From the NCBI GenBank assembly GCA_041674805.1, contig JBAYVA010000002.1, positions 184,294 to 248,293 of the forward strand: DNA of 64,000 bases. Reading direction: 5' to 3'. The notes under the pieces were generated by a model, which was given only the letters and a program-made list of their open reading frames with translations, was not told the origin of the DNA and did no database searches. The position numbers and the translations under genes are program-made. This DNA is from Candidatus Magasanikiibacteriota bacterium. Lineage in GTDB: Bacteria > Patescibacteriota > Patescibacteriia > Magasanikbacterales > UBA922. Every line of letters begins with the position of its first letter. Positions within the stretch are counted from its first letter, which is position 1. Of this stretch, positions 33,224 through 52,505 are shown in pieces.

Positions 33224-33251
33224 ACTCCTCGTGAAAACGGGGAGTTTTTTT
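33224..33251 (+). terminator. Rho-independent terminator after rpoC.
   Basis: actcctcg-tgaaaa-cggggagt followed by ttttttt. Confidence 0.7.
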
Positions 33252-33407
33252 ATATAGCATAATATGCAGATTAAGCAAAATAAACAAAGTAAGTAACTTT
33301 ATGAACTTTTGACTTTATAACTTTATGAACTTATTTTGTTCTTGATTTTCCCTTCAAAATATGCTAAATTATATTCAACAAATAAGAATTATTTTAATCT
33401 AAAATAT

Positions 33408-36799: not shown

Positions 36800-36867
36800 A
36801 GAGGAATGAGGAACGAGTAATGTGGAATGAGGAATCAAAATATTAAATTAAAAAATTACAAAAAGGG

Positions 36868-36966
36868 TTCTCCCCCTATTAGGGGGAGTTAGAGGGGGTC
36901 CATCTTTGAACAAGACGTTTTATCTTATAAAAGACCTCCCCTAGCCCCTCCTAATAGGAGGGGGAT
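36868..36966. repeat. GC-rich palindromic interspersed element, copy A (about 100 nt).
   Basis: tctccccctattagggggagttagagggggtccatctttgaacaagacgttttatcttataaaagacctcccctagcccctcctaataggagggggattc. The terminal hairpins are CCCCCTAtTAGGGGG and CCCCTCCTAaTAGGAGGGG. Confidence 0.8.
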
Positions 36967-36984
36967 TCATAAAATTTATTTTTT

Positions 36985-38181
36985 ATGAAGACTATTAGTA
37001 AACTAAAAGATCTTACAAATAAAATTGTACTTTTAAGAGTAGATTACAACGTTCCACTAAAAAAAGGTGAGATTTTGGATGATGAAAAAATTGTAAAATC
37101 TTTGCCAACCATAAGAATGTTGCAAGCCAAAAAAGCTAAGATTATTATAGTTACTCATTTGGGACGTCCTGAAGGCAAAGTAGTAGCTTCTTTGAAAGTA
37201 GATCCCATAGCTGTAAGATTGGGTGAGTTATTAAAACAAAAAATTGTAAAATTGGATACCAAAGATTGGTCAAAAAATAAAAATGACAAAATCCGTTTGG
37301 ATTTGATTACGACAGTAGATGCTTTGCGTCCAGCTGAAGTCGCTATGATGGAAAACATTCGTTTTTCACCAGATGAAGAAGATAATAAAGGTGATTTGTC
37401 ACAAGAATTGGCTAATCTTGCAGATATTTTTGTACTAGATGGTTTTGCTGTTGCTCATCGGGCGGATGCCTCTGTTGTTGGTGTAGACAAATATTTACCT
37501 AGTTATGCTGGCTTACTTTTGGAAACAGAAATAAAAATTTTGACAAAAGTTTTGAAAAATCCAAAAAAGCCTTTTGTTTCTATTATTGGTGGCATAAAAG
37601 CAGAAACAAAAATTCCTGTGATGAAAAATTTGTTGAAGACAAGTAATCATTTATTGATTGGCGGAGGTATTGTAAATACTTATTTGTATGCACTTGGTTA
37701 CAAAGTAGGAGCTTCTATTATTGATAAAGATTATGCTCAAGAAATTTTGAAATATTGTAAAAATAAAAAAGTAGTAAAACCTTTGGATGTAGTGGTAGGG
37801 GATATAAAAGGTAAAAAATATTTTGTCATGGATATAAATGAAAAATTCAAAATTACTGACAAAAATTTAGCAATTTATGATATTGGTCCAAAAACTATTC
37901 ATGAATTTTCTAAAATTATCAAAAAAGCTAATACCATTATCTGGAATGGAGCCATGGGATATTTTGAACAAAATCCGTATCAATATGGTACTTATAGTAT
38001 AGCTCGTTTGGTAGCTAGTAGATCAAAAGGTAAAGCTTTTGCTGTGGTTGGTGGAGGAGAAACAATTTTGAGTTTGGAAGCTGTAAAGATGACAGAATAT
38101 GTTGATCATGTTTCTACTGGTGGTGGTGCTATGCTTGAATTTTTGTCTGGTAAAAAATTGCCTGGATTAAAAATATTATAG
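36985..38181 (+). CDS. pgk: Phosphoglycerate kinase.
   Basis: 'LLRVDYNVP' N-terminal motif and the 'GGGA' hinge; 398 aa. Confidence 0.93.
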   Translation: MKTISKLKDLTNKIVLLRVDYNVPLKKGEILDDEKIVKSLPTIRMLQAKKAKIIIVTHLGRPEGKVVASLKVDPIAVRLGELLKQKIVKLDTKDWSKNKNDKIRLDLITTVDALRPAEVAMMENIRFSPDEEDNKGDLSQELANLADIFVLDGFAVAHRADASVVGVDKYLPSYAGLLLETEIKILTKVLKNPKKPFVSIIGGIKAETKIPVMKNLLKTSNHLLIGGGIVNTYLYALGYKVGASIIDKDYAQEILKYCKNKKVVKPLDVVVGDIKGKKYFVMDINEKFKITDKNLAIYDIGPKTIHEFSKIIKKANTIIWNGAMGYFEQNPYQYGTYSIARLVASRSKGKAFAVVGGGETILSLEAVKMTEYVDHVSTGGGAMLEFLSGKKLPGLKIL

Positions 38182-38215
38182 TTCACAGTTCGGAGTTCAT
38201 AGTTCATAGAAAAAT

Positions 38216-38476
38216 ATGAAAAAAATAAAATGTTTGCGTAAAAAAATAGATTGTGTTGATAAAAGAATTTTGAAATTGCTTGCAAAGCGTTTTGTTTTGA
38301 CTGACAAAATTGGTGCAATCAAAAAATTAGAAAAGATTGAAATAGAAGATAAAAGTAGGGAAGTAGAAATTTTAGAAAAATTTGAAAAACTTTCACAAAA
38401 ATTTAATCTTGATAAAAATTTTACAACCAATCTTCTCCAACTAATTTTGCAAGAATCAAAAAAGAGACAATCTTAG
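38216..38476 (+). CDS. Chorismate mutase (AroQ class, monofunctional).
   Basis: 'LRKKIDCVDKRILKLLAKRFVLTDKIGAIK' matches the AroQ helix 1 pattern. Confidence 0.7.
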   Translation: MKKIKCLRKKIDCVDKRILKLLAKRFVLTDKIGAIKKLEKIEIEDKSREVEILEKFEKLSQKFNLDKNFTTNLLQLILQESKKRQS

Positions 38477-38609
38477 CAATTTGTTTTTATGTTTTCATGC
38501 TTTTCAGCCCTAGGCTGATCCGCCTTGGTCGGAAATGTTTTAATTTGATGTCTCTTGCCATCACCCTCATTTTGAGATAAACTAAAGATGTAAATAATAA
38601 CGAAAAACT

Positions 38610-39596
38610 ATGAGTAAAAAAATAATCTTCTCCGCTATTCAACCGACTGGCAACTTGCATATCGGTAATTATCTTGGCGCTGTCAAAAATTGGGTAGAAC
38701 TACAGAAAAATGAGGACTATGAGTGTATTTTTTGTATTGCAGATTATCATGCGATGACCGGCGACAAGACAGCTCAAGATAGACGAGATCAGATTGTGCT
38801 TATGGCGGCTGAGCTTTTGGCTTTGGGAATTGATCCTAAGAAATCTACTTTCTTCGTCCAATCTCATGTGCCAGAGCATACTGAGCTTGCTTGGATTTTC
38901 AATACTGTGACTCCGATTGCTGAATTGGAAAGAATGACTCAATACAAAGATAAATCTCAAAAACAAATAAAAAATATCAATACAGGACTTCTGACATATC
39001 CTACTCTTATGGCTGCTGATATTTTGCTTTATCATACAGATTTGGTTCCTGTTGGAGAAGACCAAATTCAGCACGTAGAGCTTACTCGAGATATCGGTCG
39101 CTGGTTCAATAATAAATATGCTGAAAATTATTTTGGAGAAGTGAAGCCTTTGCTCACAGAAATTCCTAGAGTAAAAAGTTTACTAGAACCAACTAGAAAA
39201 ATGAGTAAGAGTTATGGGCTAAATCATGTTTTGGAACTTGCAGATGAACCAGAAGTGATTTTGGCTAAGCTCAAAAAAGCTGTAACCGCTAGTGAGCCAG
39301 GTGAAAAATCTCCAGGTGTAGAAAACTTATTATTACTATTAAAAAACTTTGCAGATGAGGCTGTGTATAACAAATTTGTAGAAGCTGAAAAAGGTGGTAC
39401 TATTAAATACGGAGAGTTAAAAAATATTTTAGCAGAAGCGATTGGTGCTTACTTCGTTGAATTCAGACAGAGACGGACAGAACTTTTGGAAAATAGAAAT
39501 GAACTTGCTTCTATATTAGCGGAAGGTGAAGAAAAGGCTAGCAAGATTGCAAAGAGTACTATGAGAGAAATCAGACAGCTCATTGGAATTAGGTAA
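38610..39596 (+). CDS. trpS: Tryptophan--tRNA ligase.
   Basis: The HIGH-like motif 'TGNLHIGNYLGA' and the 'KMSKS' motif. Confidence 0.93.
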   Translation: MSKKIIFSAIQPTGNLHIGNYLGAVKNWVELQKNEDYECIFCIADYHAMTGDKTAQDRRDQIVLMAAELLALGIDPKKSTFFVQSHVPEHTELAWIFNTVTPIAELERMTQYKDKSQKQIKNINTGLLTYPTLMAADILLYHTDLVPVGEDQIQHVELTRDIGRWFNNKYAENYFGEVKPLLTEIPRVKSLLEPTRKMSKSYGLNHVLELADEPEVILAKLKKAVTASEPGEKSPGVENLLLLLKNFADEAVYNKFVEAEKGGTIKYGELKNILAEAIGAYFVEFRQRRTELLENRNELASILAEGEEKASKIAKSTMREIRQLIGIR

Positions 39597-39639
39597 GAAT
39601 CTTTATTCATCTAAACATTATAGAAAGGGGGTGAAAAAT

Positions 39640-39852
39640 ATGAAAGCATTACATATGGTAGCTTTTTTACTAGTCGTAGTAGGAGCTTTGAATTGGTTGT
39701 TGGTAGGTCTATTTTCTTTCGATTTAGTTACATTTCTTTTCAATGAAAATTTGTACATTATCGCTAGAATAGTTTACGTATTGGTAGGTCTATCTGGTCT
39801 TGTGCTTCTTTTCACTCATAAAAAGGATTGTAAAGAATGTACTGGTCAATAA
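39640..39852 (+). CDS. DUF378-family small membrane protein.
   Basis: 'MKALHMVAFLLVVVGALNWLLVGLF'; an AGGGGG Shine-Dalgarno lies 8 nt upstream of this internal Met. Confidence 0.6.
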   Translation: MKALHMVAFLLVVVGALNWLLVGLFSFDLVTFLFNENLYIIARIVYVLVGLSGLVLLFTHKKDCKECTGQ

Positions 39853-40078
39853 TAAAATTAGTGTTAAAACAAAAAAGATGCTACATGCTTGTGGGCGTCT
39901 TTTTTGTTTTTAGTTATAATTGACATGAATTAAAAAATTATGTAGTATGAGTAAACTATAGAACACGAATTGAACTAATTTAACGAATAAAAACGAATTC
40001 GTTCCAATTCGTTAAATCTGTTAGATCCCTGCCTGCCGGCAGGCAGGCGTGTTCCATTAAATTATTTTAAAAAATAGC

Positions 40079-40384
40079 ATGAAAGTAATAAATACTCCAG
40101 ATTTGTTAGAGTGGCAAAAACAAAATAAACAATTTAGAATTATTGATGTTCGTACTGAGTATGAATACAATGCTGGGCATATCGAAGGTTCAGAGCTTAT
40201 TTCTCTTGATGTTTTCGACAGAGTTTTTGTTGAAAAATTAGCTGACAAAGATGAAACTATAGTCTGTGTTTGTCGCAGTGGTGGACGCAGTAGTATGGCG
40301 GTAGATTTTTTGAATAATCAAGGTTATAGTAATGTTTATAATCTCATTGGTGGTTATACTATGTATAGATTGTCAGCAATGTAG
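40079..40384 (+). CDS. Rhodanese-domain protein (single-domain sulfurtransferase).
   Basis: Active-site loop 'CRSGGRS'. Confidence 0.8.
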   Translation: MKVINTPDLLEWQKQNKQFRIIDVRTEYEYNAGHIEGSELISLDVFDRVFVEKLADKDETIVCVCRSGGRSSMAVDFLNNQGYSNVYNLIGGYTMYRLSAM

Positions 40385-40447
40385 TCTATTTGACATCATA
40401 TTCTAAAAATAGTAGAGTTGAAGTATTAATTTAAAAATTTTTAAACT

Positions 40448-40720
40448 ATGCCTAAATTATTTTTAGCTTATCTTGGTGGTAAAATGTTACCAAATAGAAT
40501 AGGTGAAGATCATGAAGTGGTGCTGGTGGTGGCTGAAGATAAAGTCGAGGCCAAAGCCAAAGCACAAGCCAAGTGGAAGGGTGAAGGAGCCGCACATTTG
40601 GACATGTTAACTGAGGTTGATATTGTTGATAATTATGTTATAAATTTGGAGAAGACTATGAAACAAGATAAGATGATAAGTGACGATGATTGGCATGCTT
40701 TAAATGATGTAGATAAATAA
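40448..40720 (+). CDS. Hypothetical protein.
   Basis: A 90-aa ORF followed by a strong terminator. Confidence 0.4.
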   Translation: MPKLFLAYLGGKMLPNRIGEDHEVVLVVAEDKVEAKAKAQAKWKGEGAAHLDMLTEVDIVDNYVINLEKTMKQDKMISDDDWHALNDVDK

Positions 40721-40838
40721 TTTGACAGTTTGTGACTATTATAGTAAAGTATTAAAGCTATGACACAATTATTTAACAATAATAATTTGAATAATAATAT
40801 CAGCCAATAAGTGGGTGTCATTTTTGTAAATAGAAAAT

Positions 40839-40870
40839 AACCCGCTTAAAGAAGCGGGATTTTTATTTTA
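40839..40870 (+). terminator. Rho-independent terminator.
   Basis: aacccgctt-aaaga-agcgggatttttatttt. Confidence 0.7.
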
Positions 40871-40876
40871 AAATAT

Positions 40877-41038
40877 TCCGAGGTAGTTTAGTGGTAGAAT
40901 CCCGATAAGGGCTCCCAGATAGTTCAGTGGTAGAACGCAGCGCTGTTAACGCTGATGTCGTAGGTTCGAATCCTACTCTGGGAGCTTTTATCGGGACTGT
41001 TAACGCTGATGTCACAGGTTCGAATCCTGTTCTCGGAG
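40877..41038 (+). other. Disrupted or split tRNA-Asn-like gene whose 5' part (40877-40900) and 3' part (40996-41038) flank the intact tRNA-Asn. The insert is bracketed by the inverted repeat TCCCGATAA/TTATCGGGA.
   Basis: The 5' part TCCGAGGTAGTTTAGTGGTAGAAT has an acceptor and D-arm. The 3' part ACTGTTAACGCTGATGTCACAGGTTCGAATCCTGTTCTCGGAG has the anticodon loop, T-arm and an acceptor strand complementary to TCCGAGG. The 5' strand of the anticodon stem is missing. Confidence 0.5.
40913..40984 (+). tRNA. tRNA-Asn (anticodon GTT).
   Basis: TCCCAGA TA GTTC AGTGGTA GAAC G CAGCG CTGTTAA CGCTG ATGTC GTAGG TTCGAAT CCTAC TCTGGGA G. The cloverleaf is fully canonical with a 7-bp acceptor stem. Confidence 0.9.
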
Positions 41039-41180
41039 CAAACTCAAAATTTTCCTAATGAAACATTTATATACAAACAATAATAATCAAAATAATATTT
41101 TTAGTTATGGGATGTAGTTTATTGTTGAAATTTGTATAAATTAATAATTTCGTGATAAGCGGGTTTTTTTATTAAACAGT

Positions 41181-41777
41181 ATGGAAAATATAATAATATC
41201 AAGTTTTACAATTGGTTTTATAGCGGCTGCTTTACCTGGAGCCGTACAGACTACCATTTTGCAGAGTTCTATTATTGGTAAGGCTAAGAGTAGTCTCAAA
41301 TTTGCGTTGGGAGCCTCCACAATGGATGGTTTGTATTTGGGATTAGCTTATTTTGGTTTAGTACAAATACTCATCAGTTATCATTGGTTGAAAGTAATAA
41401 TTGGTATTTTAGGATCACTATATATTGGATATATTGGTATAGTTGGTCTGAGGGACAGTTTAAAGAACACAGATGCAAAAGAAATAAGAAATAAATCATT
41501 TTTTAGTGGTTTTGTGCTAGTTTTATTACATATACCCACATTACTATATTTTGTCAGTGTCGCCGGTACTTTTTTTAAAAACGGAGTGGATTTGTTGACG
41601 GTAATTTTGTCTTGTATAGCCTTGAGTTTTGGTGCAATGGCTTGCTTTATTTTTGTCTCTTTAATTGGAAAAATGATAAACAAATTTGGTTCTAGATGGT
41701 TGGTCAAAACATTTAATATATTGGCTTCATTAATTTTGATATTTTTTGCTTTGAAAGTTATTTGGCAATTGTTTTAG
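41181..41777 (+). CDS. LysE/RhtB-family amino-acid exporter.
   Basis: Six TM helices, starting 'MENIIISSFTIGFIAAALPGAVQ'. Confidence 0.6.
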   Translation: MENIIISSFTIGFIAAALPGAVQTTILQSSIIGKAKSSLKFALGASTMDGLYLGLAYFGLVQILISYHWLKVIIGILGSLYIGYIGIVGLRDSLKNTDAKEIRNKSFFSGFVLVLLHIPTLLYFVSVAGTFFKNGVDLLTVILSCIALSFGAMACFIFVSLIGKMINKFGSRWLVKTFNILASLILIFFALKVIWQLF

Positions 41778-41842
41778 TATATTTTAGGTATTTGTTTTTT
41801 TATGTTACCATTACAATATCTAAATTTATATTTTTTTCACCT

Positions 41843-42412
41843 ATGAAAAACGCCATAATAATTCATGGCAGACCAACCAAAGAAATTTATTATGATGCAA
41901 GTAAAACTTCATCTAGTAATTTTGCTTGGATTCCTTGGCTACAAAAACAATTGATAATAAAAGATATCAAAGCCGATACACCGGAAATGTTTTTGGCCTA
42001 CGAACCGCAATATGAGATTTGGAAAGAAGAATTTGAGAGGTACGAGGTTAACGAAGAAACAATCTTAGTCGGACATAGTGCTGGTGGGGGATTTTTGCTC
42101 AGATGGCTGTCTGAAAATAAAAAAATTTTTGTTAACAAACTTGTTTTGGTTGCGCCTTCAGTTGATCCATTTGAAAAAACGGGATTGGAATTTCATAAAT
42201 TTGCCATAGACAAAGATTTGAGTAACAGAGTCCGGAAAATGATTCTCATCATGAGCGACAAAGATTCTGACGGCATAATGGAAACGGCGAATATACTTAA
42301 GAAAACATTCCCAGATATAGTATATAAAGAATTTCCTGGCTATGGACATTTTATTCCTCAAGATATGGGAAAGAGCGAATTTCCTGAGCTACTAGAAGAA
42401 ATTTTGAGATAA
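41843..42412 (+). CDS. Alpha/beta serine hydrolase (YdeN/RBBP9-like).
   Basis: 'IIIHGRPTK' and the nucleophile elbow 'LVGHSAGGG'. The start is taken at the internal Met. Confidence 0.6.
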   Translation: MKNAIIIHGRPTKEIYYDASKTSSSNFAWIPWLQKQLIIKDIKADTPEMFLAYEPQYEIWKEEFERYEVNEETILVGHSAGGGFLLRWLSENKKIFVNKLVLVAPSVDPFEKTGLEFHKFAIDKDLSNRVRKMILIMSDKDSDGIMETANILKKTFPDIVYKEFPGYGHFIPQDMGKSEFPELLEEILR

Positions 42413-42559
42413 TTTAGGTAAATATTCAAGTAAAAACAGTCCCGATTTTGTCGAGGCTGTTTTTTATAATTTTCCACTTTTTCGACTTGTTGACTTTTAT
42501 TTTTTTGTGCTATAATAATATTATACAATTTTAGTATAATTTATCTAACCACAAATCAT

Positions 42560-42994
42560 ATGTCAAAAGTCAGCACTTATATCAATTTTCCTCGCAACAC
42601 AGAGGAAGTATTCAATTTTTATAAATCAGTTTTTGGGACAGAATTTGAAGGTGAAATCAATCGTATGGGTGATATGCCTTCACAAGAAGGTCAACCTGCA
42701 ATAAGTGAAGAAGACAAAAATTTGGTAATGCATGTAGCTTTACCAATTTTGGGTGGACACGTACTTAGGGGTACTGATGCTCCAGAAAGTATGGGTTTCA
42801 CAGTAAATATGGGCAACAATATTTATATTAATTTAGAACCAGATACTCGCGAAGAAACCGAACGACTTTTTCAAGCTCTTTCTTCTGGCGGAGAAGTGGA
42901 GATGTCGTTAACAGATATGTTTTGGGGTGATTACTTTGGTTCTTGTACTGATAAGTTTGGTGTGAAATGGATGTTCAATTGTTCTCAAAAATAG
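42560..42994 (+). CDS. VOC/glyoxalase-family protein (PhnB-like).
   Basis: 'YINFPRNTEEVFNFYKSVFG' and 'DYFGSCTDKFGVKWMF'. Confidence 0.65.
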   Translation: MSKVSTYINFPRNTEEVFNFYKSVFGTEFEGEINRMGDMPSQEGQPAISEEDKNLVMHVALPILGGHVLRGTDAPESMGFTVNMGNNIYINLEPDTREETERLFQALSSGGEVEMSLTDMFWGDYFGSCTDKFGVKWMFNCSQK

Positions 42995-43037
42995 AATTAG
43001 TCTTTATACTGCAGATTGAGGAATTGGAAATTGGATT

Positions 43038-43071
43038 CTCCCTCTCCTCGTAGGAGAGGGCTGGGGTGAGG
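43038..43071. repeat. Partial third copy (terminal hairpin only) of the GC-rich palindromic element.
   Basis: ccctctcctcgtaggagagggctggggtgagg, against the family end cccctcctaataggaggggctaggggaag. Confidence 0.6.
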
Positions 43072-43127
43072 TTCGTTTAGAAAAAATAATTCTCTCAAAT
43101 TTTAATTCATATTTAATCAGTAATCAT

Positions 43128-43583
43128 ATGAAAAAACTATATTTTTCCATATTTATAAGTGCCTCACGCGAAAAAGTCTGGGAAACGATGCTTTCTGATT
43201 CTTCTTATCGTGAGTGGACAAAATCTTTCAATCCTGGTGGTTCATATTATAAAGGGGATTGGAGTCAAGGTTCTAAGATATTATTTTTGGGGCCAAATCC
43301 AGATGGTAGTGGTGAAGGTGGTATGGTTTCTCGCATCAAGGAAAATCGTCTTTATGAATATATTTCTATTGAACATTTGGGTATTATAAAAAATGGTGTG
43401 GAAGATACTACTAGTGAAGAAGTAAAAAAATGGACACCAGCTTTTGAGAATTATATTTTTAGAGAAAAAGATGGTGGCACAGAAATTGTCGTGGATATAG
43501 ATAGTAACGAAGAATACGCCAAAATGTTTTCTGAGATGTGGACAAAAGCTCTGCAAAGTCTAAAAGAATTGTGTGAAAAATAA
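43128..43583 (+). CDS. SRPBCC (AHSA1/START-like) domain protein.
   Basis: 'FSIFISASREKVWETMLSDSSYREWTKSF'. Confidence 0.55.
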   Translation: MKKLYFSIFISASREKVWETMLSDSSYREWTKSFNPGGSYYKGDWSQGSKILFLGPNPDGSGEGGMVSRIKENRLYEYISIEHLGIIKNGVEDTTSEEVKKWTPAFENYIFREKDGGTEIVVDIDSNEEYAKMFSEMWTKALQSLKELCEK

Positions 43584-43623
43584 TTTCGTATTCCTTAAAA
43601 CTTAGTGCCTAATATTTAATTTT

Positions 43624-44997
43624 ATGACTGCAGAACACAATATAAAAGATTTGACAGTGGGAAATATTCCTAAACATCTTTGGTCACTAGCTTGGCCGAT
43701 GATGCTCTCCATGTTTTTTTATACACTCTATAGCATTGTTGATACTTTTTGGGTTAGCAAATTATCCACCGAGGCTATTGCCGCTGTCAGTATCTCGCAG
43801 ATTACTCTGTTTGTGATGATTGCCCTTAGTATGGGTATTGCCGTTGGTTCAGGAGTCTTTATGGCTATGAGTATTGGTGCTAAGAATAAACCAGAAGCTG
43901 AGAGAATCTTAGGACAATCGTTTGTCCTGGCTGCTATTTCTGGTGTATTTTTTACTATCATTTCTTTGCTTTTCAAGCATCAATTATTGACTGTTTCAGG
44001 AGCTACTGGTCTTATTTATGAGCCGGCTCTGGAATATTTCACTGTTACTGCTGGAGGCTCTATTCTTTTTTTCTTTCTCATGAATGTTATGTTTGCTTTT
44101 AATTCCGAAGGTGACACTTTTACCTTGACCAAATTGTTTGCTGTTTCTACTTTGGTCAATGTGGTGCTTGATCCTATCATGATTTTTGGTAAATTTGGCA
44201 TGCCGGCTCTGGGAATTTCTGGAGCAGCTTATGCGACACTTATTTCTCAAGTCGTTTTTTTGGTTTTAGGTATTATTGTTTTGTCTGGCAAAAAAAGAAA
44301 TATTAGATTTTCTTTTCACAATTTGAGTTTCAATTTTGCGTCTGTCAAACAAATTTTGAAAATAGGTATTCCTGCTTCTCTCACCCAAGTTATTAATCCA
44401 ATTGGTCTGGCTGCTCTGATTTTTATTACTTCTCAAATTTTTTTGGAAGCTGGAGCCATTGCTTTTAGTCTGGTTTTTCGTGTAGAATTTTTTGCTTTTT
44501 TGCCAGCCGCTGGTTTTGGTTTTGCTGCTATGGCGATGATTGGTCAGAGTATGGGTGCTGGCAAACTGGAGCGCGCGCAAGCAGTTTTTAAAAAAGCTAT
44601 TGTCTTAGGATTTTTGTCAGCTTCTGGTTTTGGCGTGTTGGCAATATTATTTGGTGGTTATATCGTCGGTATTTTTACCACAGATCCTCAAGTTATGAAG
44701 TATTCTTTAATGTATTTGTGGATTGTCGGTGGTACTTATGGCTTTTTAGCGGCGGCGATGATTGAGGCTAGTGTTTTTCAAGCTATGGGACGTTCTTGGC
44801 CGGGCTTTTGGATTTTCTTTACCAAGTTCATGTTTATTTCTTTGCCTCTGGGTTATGTTTTGACTAGTGTTTTTAAATTTGATATTTGGGCTATGTGGAC
44901 TGCGATTGCCTTATCCAATGTTGTCGTTGCTGTCTTTGGTTATTTGTGGAGCCGGAGGACTGTTGAAACTAAAAAGACAATGGAAGTATTAATGTAA
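43624..44997 (+). CDS. MATE-family efflux transporter.
   Basis: 12 TM helices with two-fold internal repeat symmetry, starting 'LWSLAWPMMLSMFFYTLYSIVDTFWVSKL'. Confidence 0.8.
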   Translation: MTAEHNIKDLTVGNIPKHLWSLAWPMMLSMFFYTLYSIVDTFWVSKLSTEAIAAVSISQITLFVMIALSMGIAVGSGVFMAMSIGAKNKPEAERILGQSFVLAAISGVFFTIISLLFKHQLLTVSGATGLIYEPALEYFTVTAGGSILFFFLMNVMFAFNSEGDTFTLTKLFAVSTLVNVVLDPIMIFGKFGMPALGISGAAYATLISQVVFLVLGIIVLSGKKRNIRFSFHNLSFNFASVKQILKIGIPASLTQVINPIGLAALIFITSQIFLEAGAIAFSLVFRVEFFAFLPAAGFGFAAMAMIGQSMGAGKLERAQAVFKKAIVLGFLSASGFGVLAILFGGYIVGIFTTDPQVMKYSLMYLWIVGGTYGFLAAAMIEASVFQAMGRSWPGFWIFFTKFMFISLPLGYVLTSVFKFDIWAMWTAIALSNVVVAVFGYLWSRRTVETKKTMEVLM

Positions 44998-45062
44998 TTT
45001 TGTAAAGTAATTAAAAATAAAAACAGACTATTTGCATAGTCTGTTTTTTAGTATAAAAGTTA

Positions 45063-45260
45063 TTAAACTCTTTGTACGTTTGTTGCTGCTTTACCTTTTG
45101 GTGTACTTTCTACATCAAAAGTAACTTCGTCACCTTCTCTCAATTGAGAGAAACTAACACCAGACAAACTATTAGCATGGAAGAATAAATCTTCGCCTTC
45201 TGCTTGTAGAATAAAACCAAAGTTTTTTTCTACAACTAATTTTTTGATAGTACCTTGCAT
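45063..45260 (-). CDS. cspA: Cold-shock protein (CspA family).
   Basis: '[30 protein letters not shown]' carries the RNP1/RNP2 motifs. The start is taken at the internal Met. Confidence 0.85.
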
Positions 45261-45356
45261 ATGTATGTAAAGATATTGTGAATGAAATACCAAAAGGCAG
45301 AAATTCGACTTATCTCTACACTATTAATATGTGTGTAGCACTAAGCTACAAAAAGT

Positions 45357-45385
45357 AGTATAACATAGAATGGCTTTTTTGTCAA
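45357..45385 (-). promoter_or_regulatory. Sigma-70-type promoter for cspA (TTGACA-N17-TATACT on the minus strand).
   Basis: The plus strand reads agtata(45357-62)...tgtcaa(45380-85), a 17-nt spacer and a 5'UTR of about 90 nt. Confidence 0.5.
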
Positions 45386-45451
45386 GGTAACACGAATATT
45401 AGTACTAATAGACATGAATAATAACAAATATTAATATTTGATTGGTTTTAC

Positions 45452-45480
45452 TTGACAAAGTATTACTTTTTTGCTATACT
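45452..45480 (+). promoter_or_regulatory. Sigma-70-type promoter for the DEAD-box helicase gene (TTGACA-N17-TATACT).
   Basis: ttgaca at 45452-57 and tatact at 45475-80. This is divergent from the cspA promoter and uses identical hexamers. Confidence 0.5.
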
Positions 45481-45622
45481 TGGGTATTAATTTATAGGCA
45501 AGGCTAGCAATAGTCTTGCGACTCGATTTTTTTTGTGTCATTCCGTTCACAGCCAAAGGCTCGTGTTGCAAGGCGGACAAGTATGTGTGACTTTCAGAAA
45601 TTTTGGGTCACACATTTTTTTT

Positions 45623-46915
45623 ATGAACAAAACACAAATCGATACTGTTCGTTTTGACGATCTTGGTATCAAAAAGAATTTTTTAGAAATTCTAAAATAT
45701 AAAGGTTTTATTACTCCAACTCCAATTCAACACCAAGTAATACCAGGTGCTCTTGAAGGTAAAGACGTGGTAGGTATAGCACAAACAGGCACAGGTAAAA
45801 CTTTGGCTTATGGTATTCCTTTGATTCAAATTTTATCTAGCCAAAAAGGTCAAGGACTTGTTTTGGTGCCTACTCGTGAGTTGGCTCAACAAGTAGCAGA
45901 TGCTTTGAATAATATTGGCAAAAATTTAGGTTTACGTTTGGCTGTTGTGATCGGTGGAGTTTCTTCACGTCCTCAAATAAGAGATTTACGTAATAGTCCA
46001 CATATTGTCATTGCAACACCAGGTCGTCTTGATGATTTGATGGAACAAAGACATTTTAGATTAAATGATGTTAAAATGCTTATTTTGGATGAAGCTGATA
46101 GAATGTTGGATGTTGGATTTTTGCCTCAAATAAAACGTATTTTTCAACAAGCTCCAAAAGATAGACAAACTATGCTTTTTTCTGCTACAATGCCACCAGT
46201 GATTGCTAGTTTGGCTAGTGCTTTTATGAGAATGCCTTTGAGAATAGAAATTGCTCCACAAGGTACTTCTGCTGAAAATGTAGAACAAGAAGTTTTCGTT
46301 GTAAGTAAACCAGATAAAATGCGTCTTTTGTTTAATCTTTTGCAAACTTACAAAAAAGATACTATTCTTATTTTTTCTCGTACCAAACATGGTGCCAAGC
46401 ATATTACTAGAGATTTGCGTGATGCTAATTATACTGCTACAGAAATTCATTCCAATCGTACACAAGCACAACGTAAAACAGCGTTAGATGGTTTTTCTAA
46501 TGGTAGATTTCGTATTTTAGTAGCTACAGATATTGCCGCTAGAGGTATTGATGTAAAACAAATTTCTGTAGTAATCAATTATGATTTACCAGACAATAGT
46601 GAAGATTATGTACATCGTATTGGTCGTACAGGACGTGCTGGCAGATCTGGAAAAGCAATTTCTTTTGTAGCTCCATCTGAAAAAGCAGATATAAGAAGAA
46701 TTGAAAAATTGATTCGTAAAAGTTTGCCAATTTTGGACTTGCCTATACAAGTTTCAGAACCTTTTGAAAGTAGGGTAAGACAAGTAAATGAAAGAATAAC
46801 AAATAATAATTTTTCTACACGTAATCGTGGTGGAAATAATTTTCACAAAAAGAATAATCGTAATTCTCGTTTTGAACGTCGTTATGGACGTACTGATGCT
46901 AGAGGCGAAAGATAA
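45623..46915 (+). CDS. DEAD-box ATP-dependent RNA helicase.
   Basis: Q motif 'TPTPIQ', Walker A 'AQTGTGKT', 'DEAD', 'SAT' and 'HRIGRTGRAG'. The start is taken at MNKTQID, directly after a 5'UTR hairpin and U-tract. Confidence 0.9.
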   Translation: MNKTQIDTVRFDDLGIKKNFLEILKYKGFITPTPIQHQVIPGALEGKDVVGIAQTGTGKTLAYGIPLIQILSSQKGQGLVLVPTRELAQQVADALNNIGKNLGLRLAVVIGGVSSRPQIRDLRNSPHIVIATPGRLDDLMEQRHFRLNDVKMLILDEADRMLDVGFLPQIKRIFQQAPKDRQTMLFSATMPPVIASLASAFMRMPLRIEIAPQGTSAENVEQEVFVVSKPDKMRLLFNLLQTYKKDTILIFSRTKHGAKHITRDLRDANYTATEIHSNRTQAQRKTALDGFSNGRFRILVATDIAARGIDVKQISVVINYDLPDNSEDYVHRIGRTGRAGRSGKAISFVAPSEKADIRRIEKLIRKSLPILDLPIQVSEPFESRVRQVNERITNNNFSTRNRGGNNFHKKNNRNSRFERRYGRTDARGER

Positions 46916-46956
46916 AATTATATTCTATAATTTATTTTTTATATTAATTTAATTGT

Positions 46957-47151
46957 ATGTTGAGTAAAGTATTGCAAAATCTAAAAAAATTAGAGAAGAA
47001 AAAAAGTTCTGATTTAAATATAAATCTACAAGGTCTAAAAACACCTAAACCTCAAAAAACTGGTTTTCATGCTAAAGCAAAAAGTGAAGCCGGTGCACTT
47101 CGTCAAAGAAGTATGGGTAATAGAATGAGTAAACCTAGTAGATCAAAATAA
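46957..47151 (+). CDS. Hypothetical small basic protein.
   Basis: 64 aa, Lys/Arg-rich, with a terminator 47150-47180 downstream. Confidence 0.35.
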   Translation: MLSKVLQNLKKLEKKKSSDLNINLQGLKTPKPQKTGFHAKAKSEAGALRQRSMGNRMSKPSRSK

Positions 47152-47309
47152 GATCTACAAAAACAGAGTGTTTTACTCTGTTTTTTTACATTTTTCAAAT
47201 TGGTAATAAATTTGTAAAGATGATATTGAAAAATATTTATTTGTTTATTGTTGACAACAATCTTTTTTTTGTTTACAATGCAGCGAAAAATGTAGTAAAA
47301 TAATAACAT

Positions 47310-48503
47310 ATGAATAAAAAAATAAAAATAATTTTGTTAGTATTAAGCCTTTTCATAATTTTGGCTTTGTTATGGTATTTTTGGTGGATAAAAAGAGACA
47401 GTGTTGATGCTGAAAAACAAGAGGAACAAAAGCAGGAAATATTGAAAGTTATTGAAGATAGAATTGCTACACAAGTACGTGAAAATGACGATGCCGATCC
47501 TTTTGGTGAAGATGGATTAGCACGTATTCTTCTGATTGGTCTTGATAGTAGAGCTGGACAAACTTTTGGGCATTGTGATGTGATTCAAATGTTGGAAATA
47601 GATAAAAACAAAAGTAATGTACAAATTACAGCTGTACCTCGTGGTACTTATTCTTCGTTACCTCCTGGTAAAGCTGTGACTTCTACAGATTATTATGTAT
47701 CCAATGCTTGTGGTTTGGCTGGTCTTGATTATGGTATCAAACAAATTGAGAAAATATTAGGTAAAAAAGCTGATTATTTGGTGGTAGTAGGTTTTTCTGA
47801 AACTTTGGGCATTTTGCGTAGTTTTGATTTGCCTACAACAGAAACTTTGCAATGGTTACGTCAAAGACAAGGTTATCGTATTGGTGAACCTCAAAGAGCT
47901 CGTAATCATTCTACTTTTATCAAACAAATGATGACAAAATATATTCCTGAAAAAAATTCAAAGTTTGATTTGCCTTTTCATTATTTAATTTACAAAATTA
48001 TAAAGACAGATTTGAGTTTTGAAGAATCAGAAAAAATAATAGGAGTACTTAGTGAGATGGAATTGTCAAAAAATTCTGATAAAATTTCTTTGGCGATGCG
48101 ACCAAGTTATGATGTAGAAGATATACCTTATAATTCTGAAAACGTTGAGGAATACGTAAAAAAAATGATAGACCCTGTCAAAAATTATTTGAAAGGTAGT
48201 AGTTATACGGGAGTTACTTTAGAAGAAGCTGATGCTAAAGTTTTGGCTACTTATAATGAAAGAAAAACTGAAAAAGAATTTGTAAATTGGGCTTTTGAAA
48301 ATAATTTATGGATGCAAGTGGAAGATGAAGAAGCAAGAGAAACTTTGCATTTAGAAATTTTGCAAGATTATTTAAAAAGTATTTCTGAAGTAAAAAAGAA
48401 AGAAGATATTTTGACAGATTATATTTTAGAAATGAAATATCTTGGTTTAGAAGATTGGGCTAGTAAAGGGGAAAAGATTTTGGAAGAAGAAATAGTAAAA
48501 TAG
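47310..48503 (+). CDS. LytR-CpsA-Psr (LCP) family protein.
   Basis: N-terminal TM helix and 'ARILLIGLDSRAGQTFGHCDVIQMLEID', the LCP core. Confidence 0.7.
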   Translation: MNKKIKIILLVLSLFIILALLWYFWWIKRDSVDAEKQEEQKQEILKVIEDRIATQVRENDDADPFGEDGLARILLIGLDSRAGQTFGHCDVIQMLEIDKNKSNVQITAVPRGTYSSLPPGKAVTSTDYYVSNACGLAGLDYGIKQIEKILGKKADYLVVVGFSETLGILRSFDLPTTETLQWLRQRQGYRIGEPQRARNHSTFIKQMMTKYIPEKNSKFDLPFHYLIYKIIKTDLSFEESEKIIGVLSEMELSKNSDKISLAMRPSYDVEDIPYNSENVEEYVKKMIDPVKNYLKGSSYTGVTLEEADAKVLATYNERKTEKEFVNWAFENNLWMQVEDEEARETLHLEILQDYLKSISEVKKKEDILTDYILEMKYLGLEDWASKGEKILEEEIVK

Positions 48504-48516
48504 TTTTATTTTTTAA

Positions 48517-49368
48517 TTGAATTCTATGTCAAATAAATTACAAAATTTTTTTTTGGCAATCTTGTTTATTCTTGTTTTGGTTTTGACTTTTTGGTTAGTT
48601 ACTGTTTTGATTTGGAACAATATTTTGGTAAAAAATTTGGAAAATAAAAATGATGCAAATTCTAATTTAGAAGATGTAGTTGCTTGTACGATGGATGCTA
48701 AGATGTGTCCTGATGGTTCTTATGTTGCTAGAGTAGCGCCTGACTGTGAATTTGAAGCTTGTCCTGAAGAAGAAACAAATATTGATAAAGATTCTGGATT
48801 TTTACCAGAAGATAATACTACTTTTGAAAATCAAAATATGATGAATTGGTATGAAAATAAACCATTATCTTTTGATAATCTTGATTGGCAAGAAATTACA
48901 AGATCTGATGGTGTAAAATTCATAGCTCCTATACATGCACCTTTCTTTAATTGGTCACCAGAAGTAAAAATATCCAAAGGAAAATTGAATTGTCCTATAT
49001 CAGATATTCCTTCAAATAGTCCTGCACCTCATTTTGTTGAAAAAAATATTGGAGATAAAAAATACTGTTTATATGTCTATGGGGAAGGTGCGGCAGGAAC
49101 TTCTTATAGTAGTAGTTTATATATCACTGAGGTTGAAGAGGGACTTTTAGTAGAAATACCTGTTGTAGTATCACATACTAATTGTGGAGTTTATGGGGAT
49201 GAAGATATTGAAAAATGTGAGATTGGACAAAAATCCTGGAATAATTTTATGGAAGCAAATTTAGATAATTTTATAAATAAAATAATAAATAGTATAGAAA
49301 TTCCAAACAATATTAAAGCTGATTTTCCTGAATATAATATACAGGAGTTTATAATTAATAATTTTTAA
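48517..49368 (+). CDS. Membrane-anchored Cys-rich secreted protein, paralog 1.
   Basis: N-terminal TM helix and the shared motif 'CTMDAKMCPDGSYVARVAPDCEFEACPEE'. Confidence 0.55.
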   Translation: MNSMSNKLQNFFLAILFILVLVLTFWLVTVLIWNNILVKNLENKNDANSNLEDVVACTMDAKMCPDGSYVARVAPDCEFEACPEEETNIDKDSGFLPEDNTTFENQNMMNWYENKPLSFDNLDWQEITRSDGVKFIAPIHAPFFNWSPEVKISKGKLNCPISDIPSNSPAPHFVEKNIGDKKYCLYVYGEGAAGTSYSSSLYITEVEEGLLVEIPVVVSHTNCGVYGDEDIEKCEIGQKSWNNFMEANLDNFINKIINSIEIPNNIKADFPEYNIQEFIINNF

Positions 49369-49373
49369 AAAAC

Positions 49374-50081
49374 ATGAATATGAATGAAAAAAAATCATGG
49401 TTAATTATAATTTTGGTTTTTGTGATGTTAGTCGTGGCTACTTTTGTTGTAATTTTTATTTTATTTAAAGATTCTTGGTTTGAATCACAATCCAATAATC
49501 CAAATAACAATAATGAAGATAATACAGTTTATTGCACTGCTGACGCCAAGATGTGTCCTGATGGTTCTTATGTTGGTAGAGTAGCACCTGACTGTGAATT
49601 TGAAGCTTGTCCTGAAGTAATTAGTAGTTCTACCAATGAGGGTTTCTTGCCAGAAGTAAATAACAGTTTTGATGCTGTAATTTGGGAAGAAGTAAACAAA
49701 AATAATTTAATTTATCAAGTACCAAAAGAAATTGGTGGTTTCAATTTTGTAAAATTAAACGATTTCCCAACAGAGGTAAAATTATTAGATGAAAAATTTT
49801 CTTGTGAAGAAGAAGGTGATACAAAAAAAATAATTAATAGTACAACATATTGTGTAAATGTTTTTTCTGAAGGTGCTGCTGGTAGTATATTTGATACTTA
49901 TAATTACACTACATCTTTTTCTGATAACAAAGTATTAGAAATTGTGTTTACTGTAATTTTTCCACAATGTATGAATTATGATGGTTTGAGAGCAGAAGAT
50001 TGTATTCAAGAAGAAAAAGATTTTAATATAGATTATTTGATAGGTAGAGTTGCAAAAAGTGTAAATGAAGTTAGTAACTAA
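49374..50081 (+). CDS. Membrane-anchored Cys-rich secreted protein, paralog 2.
   Basis: N-terminal TM helix and the shared motif 'CTADAKMCPDGSYVGRVAPDCEFEACPEV'. Confidence 0.55.
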   Translation: MNMNEKKSWLIIILVFVMLVVATFVVIFILFKDSWFESQSNNPNNNNEDNTVYCTADAKMCPDGSYVGRVAPDCEFEACPEVISSSTNEGFLPEVNNSFDAVIWEEVNKNNLIYQVPKEIGGFNFVKLNDFPTEVKLLDEKFSCEEEGDTKKIINSTTYCVNVFSEGAAGSIFDTYNYTTSFSDNKVLEIVFTVIFPQCMNYDGLRAEDCIQEEKDFNIDYLIGRVAKSVNEVSN

Positions 50082-50097
50082 ATAATTTTTTTCAAAA

Positions 50098-50131
50098 TAA
50101 AAATCACCATAGATTGAATGGTGATTTTTTA
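50098..50131 (+). terminator. Rho-independent terminator.
   Basis: aaaatcaccat-agattga-atggtgattttttatt. Confidence 0.7.
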
Positions 50132-50203
50132 TTGATTATTTTTTTTGTTGGGGATAAGTAGTTATTGCGATTTTGTCGCAGTTGTGTTATTATAACTTTG
50201 ACT

Positions 50204-50581
50204 ATGAAAAGTATTATCACACAACTTACTCAAGCTGGCTACAAATGTACTAAGCCTAGAAAAGAGGTTTTGGATTTTTTGGAAAAAAATCATCATGCTA
50301 TTTCTGCTCAAGATTTGCACAAACAAATTTCCAAAGTAGATAGAGCCTCTGTTTATCGCACTTTAAATTTGTTGGAAGAATTGGGGATAGTCAATATTGA
50401 AAATTTTAATAATGAAAAATTGTATTGTTTGTCAGCTGAACCTCATCATCATATCATTTGCAAAAAATGTGGGTTTAGTGAGGAAGTACCTTGTACTTAT
50501 GAACATTATAATTTTAGTAATTTTAGTAATGTACAACATCAGATGACTTTGACCGGTGTTTGTAATAAATGTAATAAATAA
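50204..50581 (+). CDS. zur: Fur-family metalloregulator (Zur-like).
   Basis: 'KPRKEVLDFL' DNA-binding helix, 'HHHIIC..CG' and C-terminal 'CNKCNK' metal sites. The start is taken at the internal Met. Confidence 0.75.
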   Translation: MKSIITQLTQAGYKCTKPRKEVLDFLEKNHHAISAQDLHKQISKVDRASVYRTLNLLEELGIVNIENFNNEKLYCLSAEPHHHIICKKCGFSEEVPCTYEHYNFSNFSNVQHQMTLTGVCNKCNK

Positions 50582-50586
50582 AAAAT

Positions 50587-51510
50587 ATGTTGAAAAAAAT
50601 ATTTTTGTCTGTCGTTTTGTTTTTTGCTGTAACTCTTTTTTTAGGTGGTTGTAGTTTGCAAAATTCTTCTGAAGATACAAAAAATAGTGAACAAAAAATA
50701 AAAGTAGCTGCTAGTATTTTTCCTTTATATGATATAACAAAAGAAATTGCGGGAGATAAAATTGATGTTAGTTTGATTCTTCCTCCTGGCGCTAGCCCTC
50801 ACACTTTCGAAGTTTCAGCTTCTCAAATAAAAAAATTACAGGGTGTAAAATTGTTTTTTGTTATTGGTCAAAATTTGGATGCTTGGGTAGAAAATATTTC
50901 TTCAACAATCTCAGACTCGAAAACTGTTGATTTGAGTATGGTAGTAGAATTGCAACAACTAGATGAGAATAATCCAAATCATAGACCTGATGAAGAAGAT
51001 GAAGGTTTAGATCCTCACTATTGGCTAAGTCCAAAAAATATTTATACTGTATCTGAAGAAATTTTGAATCAATTGGTATTATTATCTCCAGAAAATGAAA
51101 GTTACTTTTTGGGTAATTATAATAATTTTGTAAATCAATTGCAGACCAAAGATGTCGAGTGGCAAGAAAAGATGAATAGTTTGACTAACAAAAATATTGT
51201 AGTATTTCATGATGCTTGGGGCTATTTTGCGGATCATTTTGGTTTGACTGTTGTTGGTACTTTTGAACCTTTTCCTGGACAAGAGCCTACTCCTCAATAT
51301 TTGAAAGAATTACAAGCTTCTGTCAAAGAATATAATATTAAAGCATTGTTTGCAGAACCACAGTTGTCTCAAGATTCTATCAAGACTTTAGCTAAAGATT
51401 TGGGAGTAGATATAAAAGTTTTGGATCCTACTGGTGGTGTAGAAGGACGTGCTAGTTATATTGAGATGATGGATTTTAATGTGAATAATGTATTTGATTT
51501 ATTAAAATAA
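50587..51510 (+). CDS. znuA: Metal (Zn/Mn) ABC-transporter substrate-binding lipoprotein, TroA/ZnuA family.
   Basis: Lipobox 'LGGCS', a His/Asp/Glu-rich loop 'NPNHRPDEEDEGLDPHYW' and the 'FHDAWGYF' motif. Confidence 0.7.
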   Translation: MLKKIFLSVVLFFAVTLFLGGCSLQNSSEDTKNSEQKIKVAASIFPLYDITKEIAGDKIDVSLILPPGASPHTFEVSASQIKKLQGVKLFFVIGQNLDAWVENISSTISDSKTVDLSMVVELQQLDENNPNHRPDEEDEGLDPHYWLSPKNIYTVSEEILNQLVLLSPENESYFLGNYNNFVNQLQTKDVEWQEKMNSLTNKNIVVFHDAWGYFADHFGLTVVGTFEPFPGQEPTPQYLKELQASVKEYNIKALFAEPQLSQDSIKTLAKDLGVDIKVLDPTGGVEGRASYIEMMDFNVNNVFDLLK

Positions 51511-51518
51511 TATTTGGA

Positions 51519-51612
51519 AGTTCCCCTCCTATTAGGAGGGGCTAGGGGAAGTATAGAGTAATATAAAACGTTTTATTCAAAGATGGACCCCCTCTAACTC
51601 CCCCTAATAAGG
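51519..51612. repeat. GC-rich palindromic interspersed element, copy B, in inverted orientation relative to copy A.
   Basis: Its reverse complement matches 36868-36966 over about 95 nt with about 12 substitutions. Confidence 0.8.
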
Positions 51613-51630
51613 AAAAAATAATAAAAAAGT

Positions 51631-52387: not shown

Positions 52388-52477
52388 CTGTAGACCCTGT
52401 TAACTTTTATCTATTCAAAAACGTTTTTTAGAATCAATTTCAGGTTTATTAAATAAAAATATTTATACTTAAAAAAG

Positions 52478-52505
52478 ATCCCTCGTCGTATTCTCGACTC
52501 GGGAT
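52478..52505 (+). promoter_or_regulatory. Hairpin-family copy 2, immediately 5' of the znuB start.
   Basis: ATCCCtcGTCGtattctCGACtcGGGAT. Confidence 0.5.

Follow-up and report, generated by a model that had tools for sequence, protein, structure and literature searches.

Gene-less GC-rich repeats in a Magasanikbacteria contig with BoxC/PIT-type ends and probable DUF559-bearing relatives

Introduction

What kind of DNA lies between gap and pgk, and again in opposite orientation between a znuA-like and a znuC-like gene, in a 64,000-nt stretch of Candidatus Magasanikiibacteriota bacterium contig JBAYVA010000002.1 (the window, to which all positions given without a locus label refer)? Both spacers carry a copy of one ~100-nt, GC-rich palindromic element that has no open reading frame (ORF). 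A sequence-only reading of this stretch had proposed either a non-autonomous element of the miniature inverted-repeat transposable element (MITE) or repetitive extragenic palindrome (REP) kind, or a small structured non-coding RNA family. The answer favoured here, with somewhat more confidence than doubt, is that these are gene-less copies of a palindromic DNA-level element with BoxC/PIT-type ends, whose relatives bearing a DUF559 gene point to a partner enzyme.

BoxC/PIT/TM motifs occur abundantly across hundreds of bacterial genomes; they mark unstable loci and fold into triplexes in vitro. We know of no function, origin or partner protein for them, and to our knowledge they have been unexplained since the 1990s; nor do we know of a role for DUF559, a very large family of small predicted nucleases that includes Escherichia coli YcjD. 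The element is a fresh member of this known but unexplained kind, and the DUF559 link, which can be tested in E. coli, is apparently the new part. The motifs are tied to DUF559 in three ways, namely shared ends in bacteria of the candidate phyla radiation (CPR), a 26-fold enrichment around DUF559 genes, and a TMECO copy by ycjD in E. coli K-12, and both open questions are therefore testable in E. coli. If the link is true, small bacterial repeats would have a third kind of enzyme at their root, in addition to DDE transposases and the HUH enzymes known as REP-associated tyrosine transposases (RAYTs), and the nuclease would be a natural case of one that reads a DNA triple helix. Such repeats are tolerated, and in part conserved, within the operons of reduced CPR genomes, whose spacers are minimal.

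Results and Discussion

One element in two operon spacers

Copy 1 (36867-36967), a full ORF-less element with its P1-to-P3 orientation on the minus strand, occupies the spacer between gap (35789-36799) and pgk (36985-38181), and copy 2 (51519-51616, plus strand), also ORF-less and partly decayed, lies between the znuA-like (50587-51510) and znuC-like (51631-52350) genes; all four flanking ORFs are on the plus strand. Pairwise alignment of 36868-36966 with the reverse complement of 51519-51612 gave 82 identities in 93 positions (88%), bearing out the sequence-only reading on the presence of the same element at both sites, its opposite orientation and its identity, and a repeat search of the window returned inverted arms of 109 nt at 36874-36982 and 51504-51612 (84%). 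The description of GC-rich ends around an AT-rich core was also accurate: the GC content is 48% in copy 1 and 44% in copy 2 against 32% for the window, with 58-61% at the ends and 30% in the core. Runs of four or more G or C in the window concentrate at the element sites, and the end motifs had zero occurrences in dinucleotide-preserving shuffles. An nhmmer search of the window using a family profile built from 14 canonical copies in other genomes recovered copy 1 at E=5e-33 and copy 2 at E=5e-27, and an end module detector run on the 64 kb found exactly the four known modules and no others.

Folding, a check that the sequence-only reading had proposed, was compared with that of shuffled sequences, and copy 1 proved strongly structured on both strands (-51.2 kcal/mol, z=-4.7 on one; -48.6 kcal/mol, z=-3.6 on the other), with copy 2 folding less well (z about -2). 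The whole element folds as a hairpin, a central stem and a second hairpin, in which the inverted ends let the two inner mirror arms pair. GC-rich hairpins at gene ends might also be shared intrinsic terminators with no element behind them, an alternative that had been named beforehand, but a terminator scan of the coding strand was negative at both copies, the element occurs in both orientations within apparent operons, the ~100 nt of shared sequence includes a non-hairpin interior, and PIT elements have no terminator activity; this explanation is hardly credible.

The ends are three-part modules with triplex syntax

Each end had been described as a hairpin followed by CTAGGGGAAG. As an account of a plain hairpin this did not hold, the ends being three-part, triplex-type modules of the BoxC/PIT/TM class, laid out as a pyrimidine arm, a loop, a purine arm, a 3-nt linker (TTA or CTA) and a mirror purine arm, in which the G-run behind the hairpin mirrors the hairpin's purine arm (reversed, without complement). 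In copy 1, the module at 36870-36898 (plus strand) reads CTCCCCC (36870-76), loop TATTA, GGGGGAG (36882-88), linker TTA and mirror arm GAGGGGG (36892-98), and the module at 36935-36963 (minus strand) reads CCCCTCC (36963-57), loop TATTA, GGAGGGG (36951-45), linker CTA and mirror arm GGGGAGG (36941-35); both were found by the module detector and satisfy the mirror rule. Between them lies an AT-rich interior (36899-36934), designated variant B, with a central near-palindrome ATAAAACGT(C/T)TT. The first module of copy 2 (51523-51551, plus strand) reads CCCCTCC, TATTA, GGAGGGG, CTA, GGGGAAG, its mirror arm carrying one G to A change, and the second (51588-51616, minus strand) keeps GGGGGAG-TTA-GAGGGGG intact next to a decayed pyrimidine arm, TTTTCCT in place of CTCCCCC. 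The orthologous znu copy in another genome (L036) is undamaged.

A first mirror-repeat test over all C/G hairpins was diluted by AT-rich tails, and the test was rerun on 186 non-redundant asymmetric modules with G-rich tails. Perfect mirrors were present in 131 of the 186, compared with 19 for a direct-order control, and the mean mirror match was 0.93 versus 0.77 +/- 0.007 for shuffled patterns; the linker was 3 nt long in 114 of 144 modules. The base facing a mirrored A was A in 171 cases, T in 144 and G in 3. These preferences are the pairing rules of an antiparallel purine-motif triple helix, and all four intact window modules satisfy the corresponding mirror rule (G facing G; A or T facing A). 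Within the Magasanikbacteria family the three arms change together, from CCCCTCC/GGAGGGG/GGGGAGG to CCTCCCC/GGGGAGG/GGTGGGG, with the central-stem partner of the third arm unchanged, and it is because this partner stays fixed that a G-T and an A-C mismatch persist in the central stem of almost every copy. Since neither inverted repeats nor hairpins require a mirror, the mirror relation appears to be selected for its own sake, and we regard the triplex syntax as quite probably the selected feature. Two other structures were rejected: a G-quadruplex of the two G-arms leaves the non-G bases at mirror positions and the A/T alternation unexplained, and the sequences required for an alternative hairpin of the pyrimidine arm with the second G-arm are non-complementary. 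The triplex has been shown by circular dichroism and nuclear magnetic resonance for the E. coli sequence only (PMC4666352).

Relatives with the same ends carry a DUF559 gene

Comparisons with other genomes were made on fetched 8-kb loci (labelled L with a number). In L003, L009, L196, L202, L206, L210 and L211, a 117-aa ORF lies exactly between both ends of the element. The ORF belongs to Pfam DUF559 (PF04480, E=1e-33), and among known structures the DUF559 profile matches 3HRL from Neisseria gonorrhoeae (6e-31) and, at 2e-5, the I-Bth0305I homing endonuclease in its catalytic domain (3R3P). In L003 and L009 the unit is ordered as end module, inner arm, ~40 nt with a Shine-Dalgarno sequence, ORF, ~15 nt, CTCAAAGATGGACC, inner arm and end module. 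Close homologues of the protein led to further units whose ends are likewise intact, and the units occur in four contexts (Wzy_C | gmd; pilin | Laminin_G; Sua5 | 388-aa gene; Lnb_N | rplA), across which the DUF559 proteins are at least 77% identical, the Lnb_N | rplA protein being 90% identical to that at Wzy_C | gmd. The ratio of nonsynonymous to synonymous substitution rates is 0.06-0.28, which indicates that the protein is functional.

Gene-bearing units and ORF-less copies have identical ends and identical inner flanks. The variant B interiors of the window copies consist of the 5′ leader and the 3′ trailer of the DUF559 units, the 3′ part, TTCAAAGATGGACC, being the sequence found directly 3′ of the ORF in full-length units (alignments; compare L009, L196 and L210), and loss of the ORF through a microhomology deletion would fit the junctions. 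On these alignments the window copies look like internal-deletion derivatives of a ~0.5-kb DUF559 unit; their membership of the family and their kinship with the DUF559 units are very probable. The earlier statement that no transposase is present stands for the window, but full-length members elsewhere encode the DUF559 nuclease.

The same arrangement could arise if the triplex doublet were a primary, enzyme-independent structural or instability element, as proposed for BoxC/TM, and DUF559 a secondary homing invader of the doublet centre, which would make the window copies 'empty' targets and not deletion derivatives. DUF559 is related to the EDxHD homing endonuclease I-Bth0305I, ORF-less copies are far more numerous than ORF-bearing ones, and the ORF adjoins the central palindrome, which is conserved in the ORF-less centre (ATAAAACGTTTTAT) and could be the cleavage site of a dimer. 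What homing would leave unexplained is the spread of the doublets and the conservation of their ends across phyla; moreover, the junctions resemble microhomology deletions of the ORF, and in other phyla the interiors are unrelated, yet DUF559 still lies between modules. The protein shares its catalytic fold with EDxHD/Vsr-like homing endonucleases and Vsr (3R3P 2e-5, 3HRL 6e-31); it differs in being ~117 aa long with no additional DNA-binding domain, and in its location outside introns and inteins, between triplex-type inverted repeats. We consider the homing account unlikely, and the view of the window copies as empty targets equally so.

The module-DUF559 association extends to other lineages

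A further 80 metagenome loci and 69 viral loci were fetched by the DUF559 protein alone and then scanned with the end module detector. A module was present within 200 nt of the ORF in 54 of the 80 metagenome loci, in 27 of them on both sides, and strict modules reached 2.8 per kb within 200 nt of the DUF559 ORF versus 0.11 per kb beyond 300 nt (26-fold). The commonest layout was module, ORF, inverted module, as in the Magasanikbacteria units, and the two flanking modules were usually unlike each other; the same layout was seen in other lineages, for example at L041 and in Marinifilum (L043). Some annotated DUF559 proteins read into the modules, for instance P0014, which begins with PPLLLGGGRGR at its N-terminus, and P0086, with ...SPLLDKERGLGVR at its C-terminus. 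Among the viral contigs, where DUF559 was found in 69, nearby modules were present in 11 of 67.

Literature searches on DUF559, COG2852, ycjD and Vsr-like proteins with inverted repeats returned no paper tying DUF559 to flanking repeats, and the link seems to be undescribed in the searchable literature. Among predicted targets of programmed inversion, DUF559 is enriched 14-fold and 'endonuclease domain-containing' proteins 10-fold (PMC9881135); flanking inverted triplex modules may explain this enrichment.

The element belongs to the BoxC/PIT/TM class, which includes a copy beside E. coli ycjD

Motifs of this class have been called BoxC in E. coli, PIT elements (Hoyne & Maher 2000) and TM or TMECO (Holder et al. 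2015, PMC4666352). As a single strand, the E. coli motif forms a stable class II purine-motif triplex in vitro; its second loop is TTA or CCG, and MG1655 has 23 copies, all intergenic and without strand bias (PMC4666352). Five inverted pairs are known in E. coli, each made of two unlike types, and motif loci are more rearranged among strains (PMC4666352). Salmonella is reported to lack TMECO.

The window elements share with BoxC/PIT/TMECO the succession of C-rich arm, loop, G-rich arm, 3-nt second loop (often TTA) and second G-rich arm, as well as an intergenic, multi-copy distribution without strand bias and with a presence that varies among relatives. They also occur as inverted pairs of unlike partners, types A and B in E. 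coli and a GGAGGGG-type with a GGGGGAG-type here. The differences are that the arms here are 7 nt long with other sequences, as opposed to 9 nt (CCCTCNCCC/GGGNGAGGG) in E. coli, that the interior of the doublet, 36-40 nt long and AT-rich, contains a conserved palindrome of its own, that the host is a CPR bacterium of 32% GC, and that DUF559-bearing relatives exist here whereas published work reports no associated mobility gene. The TMECO pattern (CCCTCNCCC N3-6 GGGNGAGGG N3 GGGNGAGGG) does not match the window arms CCCCTCC/GGAGGGG and CTCCCCC/GGGGGAG. The sole window locus close to it is a third one, described below (CCCTCTCC..GGAGAGGG..GGGTGAGG), and this is near the pattern but does not match it; membership is therefore in the wider G/C-rich TM class and not in TMECO itself. 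By their layout, the window elements are inverted doublets of the BoxC/PIT/TM class, with other arms, a longer interior and a new phylum as host.

In E. coli K-12 (NC_000913.3), where the DUF559 gene is ycjD (1351407-1351760, minus strand), the same strand carries CCCTCGCCCCTCTGGGGAGAGGGTTAGGGTGAGGGG 168 nt downstream of that gene, and this sequence is TMECO no. 9 (Table 1 of PMC4666352); the terms DUF559, ycjD and endonuclease are absent from the text of that paper. The 121-nt stretch around TMECO no. 9 occurs at a median of 16 places per E. coli genome. By our own arithmetic (18 TMECO loci in 4.6 Mb), ~0.002 copies would be expected by chance within 200 nt of a given gene. BoxC was apparently first described upstream of envM (fabI), in this same spacer. 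YcjD-like proteins have previously been predicted to be relatives of Vsr.

Between ycjD and TMECO no. 9 in K-12 (L212 7250-7420, minus strand), part of the ycjD 3′ end is present in duplicate (GGAGACGGTGCTGGAGAATATTC...CTGAACCG), with GGGTTAGGGG after it, and the coding end of ycjD runs through CCCTCTCCCTGAAAGAGCGAGGGGG; these stretches resemble what would be left of additional modules or of another DUF559 copy.

The family is dispersed, intergenic and variable among relatives

The family was scanned for with a 21-nt degenerate pattern from the element ends, using one genome per species. The pattern returned 38 loci, about 28 of them in metagenome-assembled genomes (MAGs) assigned to Candidatus Magasanikbacteria or to other Patescibacteria (31-36% GC), where a single MAG had as many as 10 element loci. 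The remaining matches (Trueperaceae, 62% GC; Prevotellaceae; Anaerolineales; uncultured Bacteroidetes; others) show the same three-part architecture, with unrelated interiors whose GC content matches that of each host, and because the architecture is identical these matches are judged not to be due to chance. In the Patescibacteria loci every copy is intergenic, usually 10-130 nt from each adjacent gene and mostly between co-directional genes; among 23 full copies between co-directional gene pairs, 10 are sense and 13 antisense, indicating no strand bias.

Orthologous sites differ in content. The window spacer at 33249-33312 is an empty site, as is its counterpart in L024, and the orthologous spacer in L034 holds a full copy; at another site, the full element of L003 and L206 corresponds to a single hairpin in L196. 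Four species share the gap/pgk copy at orthologous positions, and two share the znu copy. The copy count in related genomes proposed in the sequence-only reading came out in its favour, with about 28 Patescibacteria loci by end pattern and presence or absence at orthologous sites. Beside the empty or filled site, a conserved small hairpin, AAAAACTCCCCGTTTTCACGAGGAGTT, is present in three species (L034 ~1640, L024 ~6490, and window 33215-33245 on the minus strand). Some copies have an extra short GC-rich hairpin nested between the terminal hairpin and the mirror arm (for example CTGCCTGCCGGCAGGCAT and CCACCCAAGGCGGATCAGTCCTTTGGCTG), which may be a further tiny nested repeat; these are found at L013 4597-4727, L022 5000-5083, L014 7011-7120, L030 4685-4806 and L003 5070-5105.

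The proposal of a non-autonomous MITE- or REP-like element holds in the broad sense that the copies are dispersed, intergenic, in both orientations and variably present, and have ORF-bearing relatives with the same ends. In the narrow sense of an ordinary MITE of a DDE insertion sequence (IS), or of a REP doublet forming a hairpin (REPIN) mobilised by a RAYT (Y1 HUH) enzyme, it is very improbable. The elements are indeed short (~100 nt), non-coding, dispersed and intergenic, with terminal inverted repeats that each contain their own palindrome. Correia, ERIC and RUP MITEs are derivatives of DDE insertion sequences with target duplications. The elements here resemble them in size, terminal inverted repeats, intergenic or operon-internal sites and co-transcription as long hairpins, but their cognate gene does not encode a DDE transposase, the relative with the same ends encoding a DUF559 nuclease, and no duplication could be shown. 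With REP/REPIN-RAYT systems they share the inverted doublet of short palindromes, the ~100-nt hairpin, many gene-less copies per genome, a small nuclease-type gene between the same repeats, and single copies that persist vertically for long. Unlike REPs, they have TTA or CTA linkers followed by a G-run in place of a GTAG or CGTC tag at the palindrome foot, they end in a mirror third arm that REPs lack, and the flanked gene encodes a PD-(D/E)XK (Vsr-like) DUF559 protein (PF04480) and not a Y1 HUH transposase, none of which was seen beside any copy in the fetched loci.

The sole IS in the related loci is an IS1595-family element (PF12762, 4.8e-25), which has unrelated ends and inserts into hairpin loops with its own duplication. 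In MAG STC_93 this IS and a ~250-bp gene-less derivative, with ends CGGTAGTGCATAC...GTATGCACTACCG, sit in the loops of the element's terminal hairpins (L027 4125-4850; L028 804-1057, where CTAATAG is duplicated by the insertion; L021 1706-2063), and the triplex hairpins are therefore a target for another mobile element.

Integron attC sites (RYYYAAC ... GTTRRRY) were also considered and rejected: GTTAGGG/CTCTAAC resemble attC cores in some copies only, the linker varies and is CTA in both window copies, and the copies are dispersed between housekeeping genes and not arrayed.

The gap/pgk copy is conserved beyond its flanking genes

Copy 1 is 94-98% identical to its orthologues in L006, L024 and L032, compared with 61-69% at the third codon positions of gap and pgk. 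Because this identity is found where synonymous sites are saturated, the gap/pgk copy is evidently under site-specific purifying selection. Concerted evolution was excluded as the cause, the gap/pgk orthologues having a common interior variant that is missing from paralogues in the same genomes. One interior pair is G-C, G-T or A-T across the orthologues on the sense strand. A strand-specific count of G-U versus A-C pairs was uninformative as a test of selection on RNA, the conserved central-stem mismatches being symmetric on both strands.

These observations bear on whether the element acts as RNA in cis, its hairpins setting mRNA stability or the relative expression of the flanking genes within an operon transcript, as for REPs and bacterial interspersed mosaic elements (BIMEs). 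Strong folding, the position 10-130 nt from each of two co-directional genes, the conservation of copy 1 and its sense-strand pairing would all suit such a role. It is difficult to reconcile with the even split of sense and antisense copies, the decay of copy 2, and a mirror third arm that has no part in an RNA hairpin, purine-motif triplexes being stated not to form in RNA (PMC4666352). The motifs also have neither promoter nor terminator activity and no effect on RNA polymerase, and block DNA polymerase in vitro (PMC4666352). An Rfam scan of the window at the gathering threshold passed tRNAs alone, with generic long hairpins as the best sub-threshold matches, and a scan of eight loci from other phyla at gathering and E-value thresholds returned no family. 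A cis-acting RNA role is thus an improbable explanation of the element, and the suggestion of a small structured non-coding RNA family is not upheld given the Rfam result, the lack of strand bias and the reported behaviour of purine-motif triplexes. The cis-acting role may be a secondary use of some copies, and some, such as that at gap/pgk, are perhaps kept by selection as a stable hairpin in the operon transcript.

A possible role for DUF559 in mobilising the ends

For the reading preferred here, that of gene-less copies of an element whose partner is DUF559, a mechanism can be outlined. The nuclease would recognise or cut the folded ends while the DNA is transiently single-stranded, and this action would drive the copying or insertion of gene-bearing and gene-less forms alike, in parallel with the service of RAYTs to REPs and REPINs. 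That DUF559 is the mobilising enzyme is given a little less than an even chance. Vsr-type enzymes nick at T:G mismatches, and a connection between this activity and the conserved G-T mismatch of the doublet's central stem is speculative. Extended from CPR bacteria to E. coli, this idea could make BoxC/PIT/TM repeats the termini, and the derivatives without a gene, of a selfish or domesticated DUF559 (YcjD-like, Vsr-related) unit of wide distribution. The system would resemble REPIN/RAYT, with a PD-(D/E)XK nuclease reading DNA ends that fold as triplexes; this generalisation is tentative and held with more doubt than confidence.

Several observations weigh against the partnership. The 64-kb window contains no DUF559 homologue, and none was found in the STC_93 loci either. 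Published work on E. coli found neither a triplex, whether in duplex DNA or by footprinting in vivo, nor any transposase, integrase or mobile element near the copies (PMC4666352). Strict modules are missing from the surroundings of about half of the DUF559 loci, and a minority (L045 1437-1938; L054, L058, L090, L095, L106) have the opposite polarity, with the hairpins on the side of the ORF and the mirror arms farther out. Arm sequence is weakly correlated with protein identity (Mantel r=0.09, reached by 8 of 2000 permutations), a co-variation that is significant but explained largely by shared descent. The strong conservation at gap/pgk suits a host function at least as well as selfish spread. 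In three comparisons of empty and filled sites, neither a target-site duplication nor the exact insertion point could be defined, the spacers being too diverged; the element ends read RATT|CCCC...GGGGGAG|AAT(C), which is equally explained as an extension of the inverted repeat.

Further loci in the window

A third locus, in the VOC/SRPBCC spacer, had been taken for a terminal piece of the element, and this assignment was confirmed with a refinement. It gives a marginal match to the first half of the family profile (43039-43085, nhmmer E=0.005), and its sequence at 43040-43071 (plus strand) reads CCCTCTCC-TCGTA-GGAGAGGG-CTG-GGGTGAGG, which is a complete module. As the module syntax is complete despite the marginal profile match, the locus is best described as a solo end of a sister subfamily.

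The long hairpin at 8932-9032 had been suggested as a distant relative. At 8934-9029 (plus strand) a G-arm TTTGAGGGGAAA (8934-45) and a C-arm TTTCCCCCTCAAA (9006-18) flank a long interior stem, and CTCCCC (9019-24) follows; the two arms pair, the minus strand keeps a mirror pair, GGGGAG-TTT-GAGGGGG, and the minus-strand fold reaches -39.4 kcal/mol (z=-3.8). These features speak for the suggestion and the family profile speaks against it, giving no significant match to the hairpin (9004-9027, E=0.73), so that a decayed relative is plausible at best.

A second small repeat family, AAGATCCCTCG..(loop)..CTCGGGAT, occurs at 52463-52505, 57045-57087 and 57610-57652, in each case 20-50 nt 5′ of a plus-strand ORF, and a similar sequence lies within the IS1595-derived element of L028. 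Two tRNA-Ser(CGA) genes on the minus strand (11932-12023 and 13467-13555) are separated by 1.5 kb, and an inverted repeat (12925-12965 and 14080-14120) surrounds the second of them. Tandem repeats at 1-1005 (unit 141 nt, six copies, 63-86% identity to the first) and 59294-60598 (unit 114 nt) are probably repeats within coding sequence.

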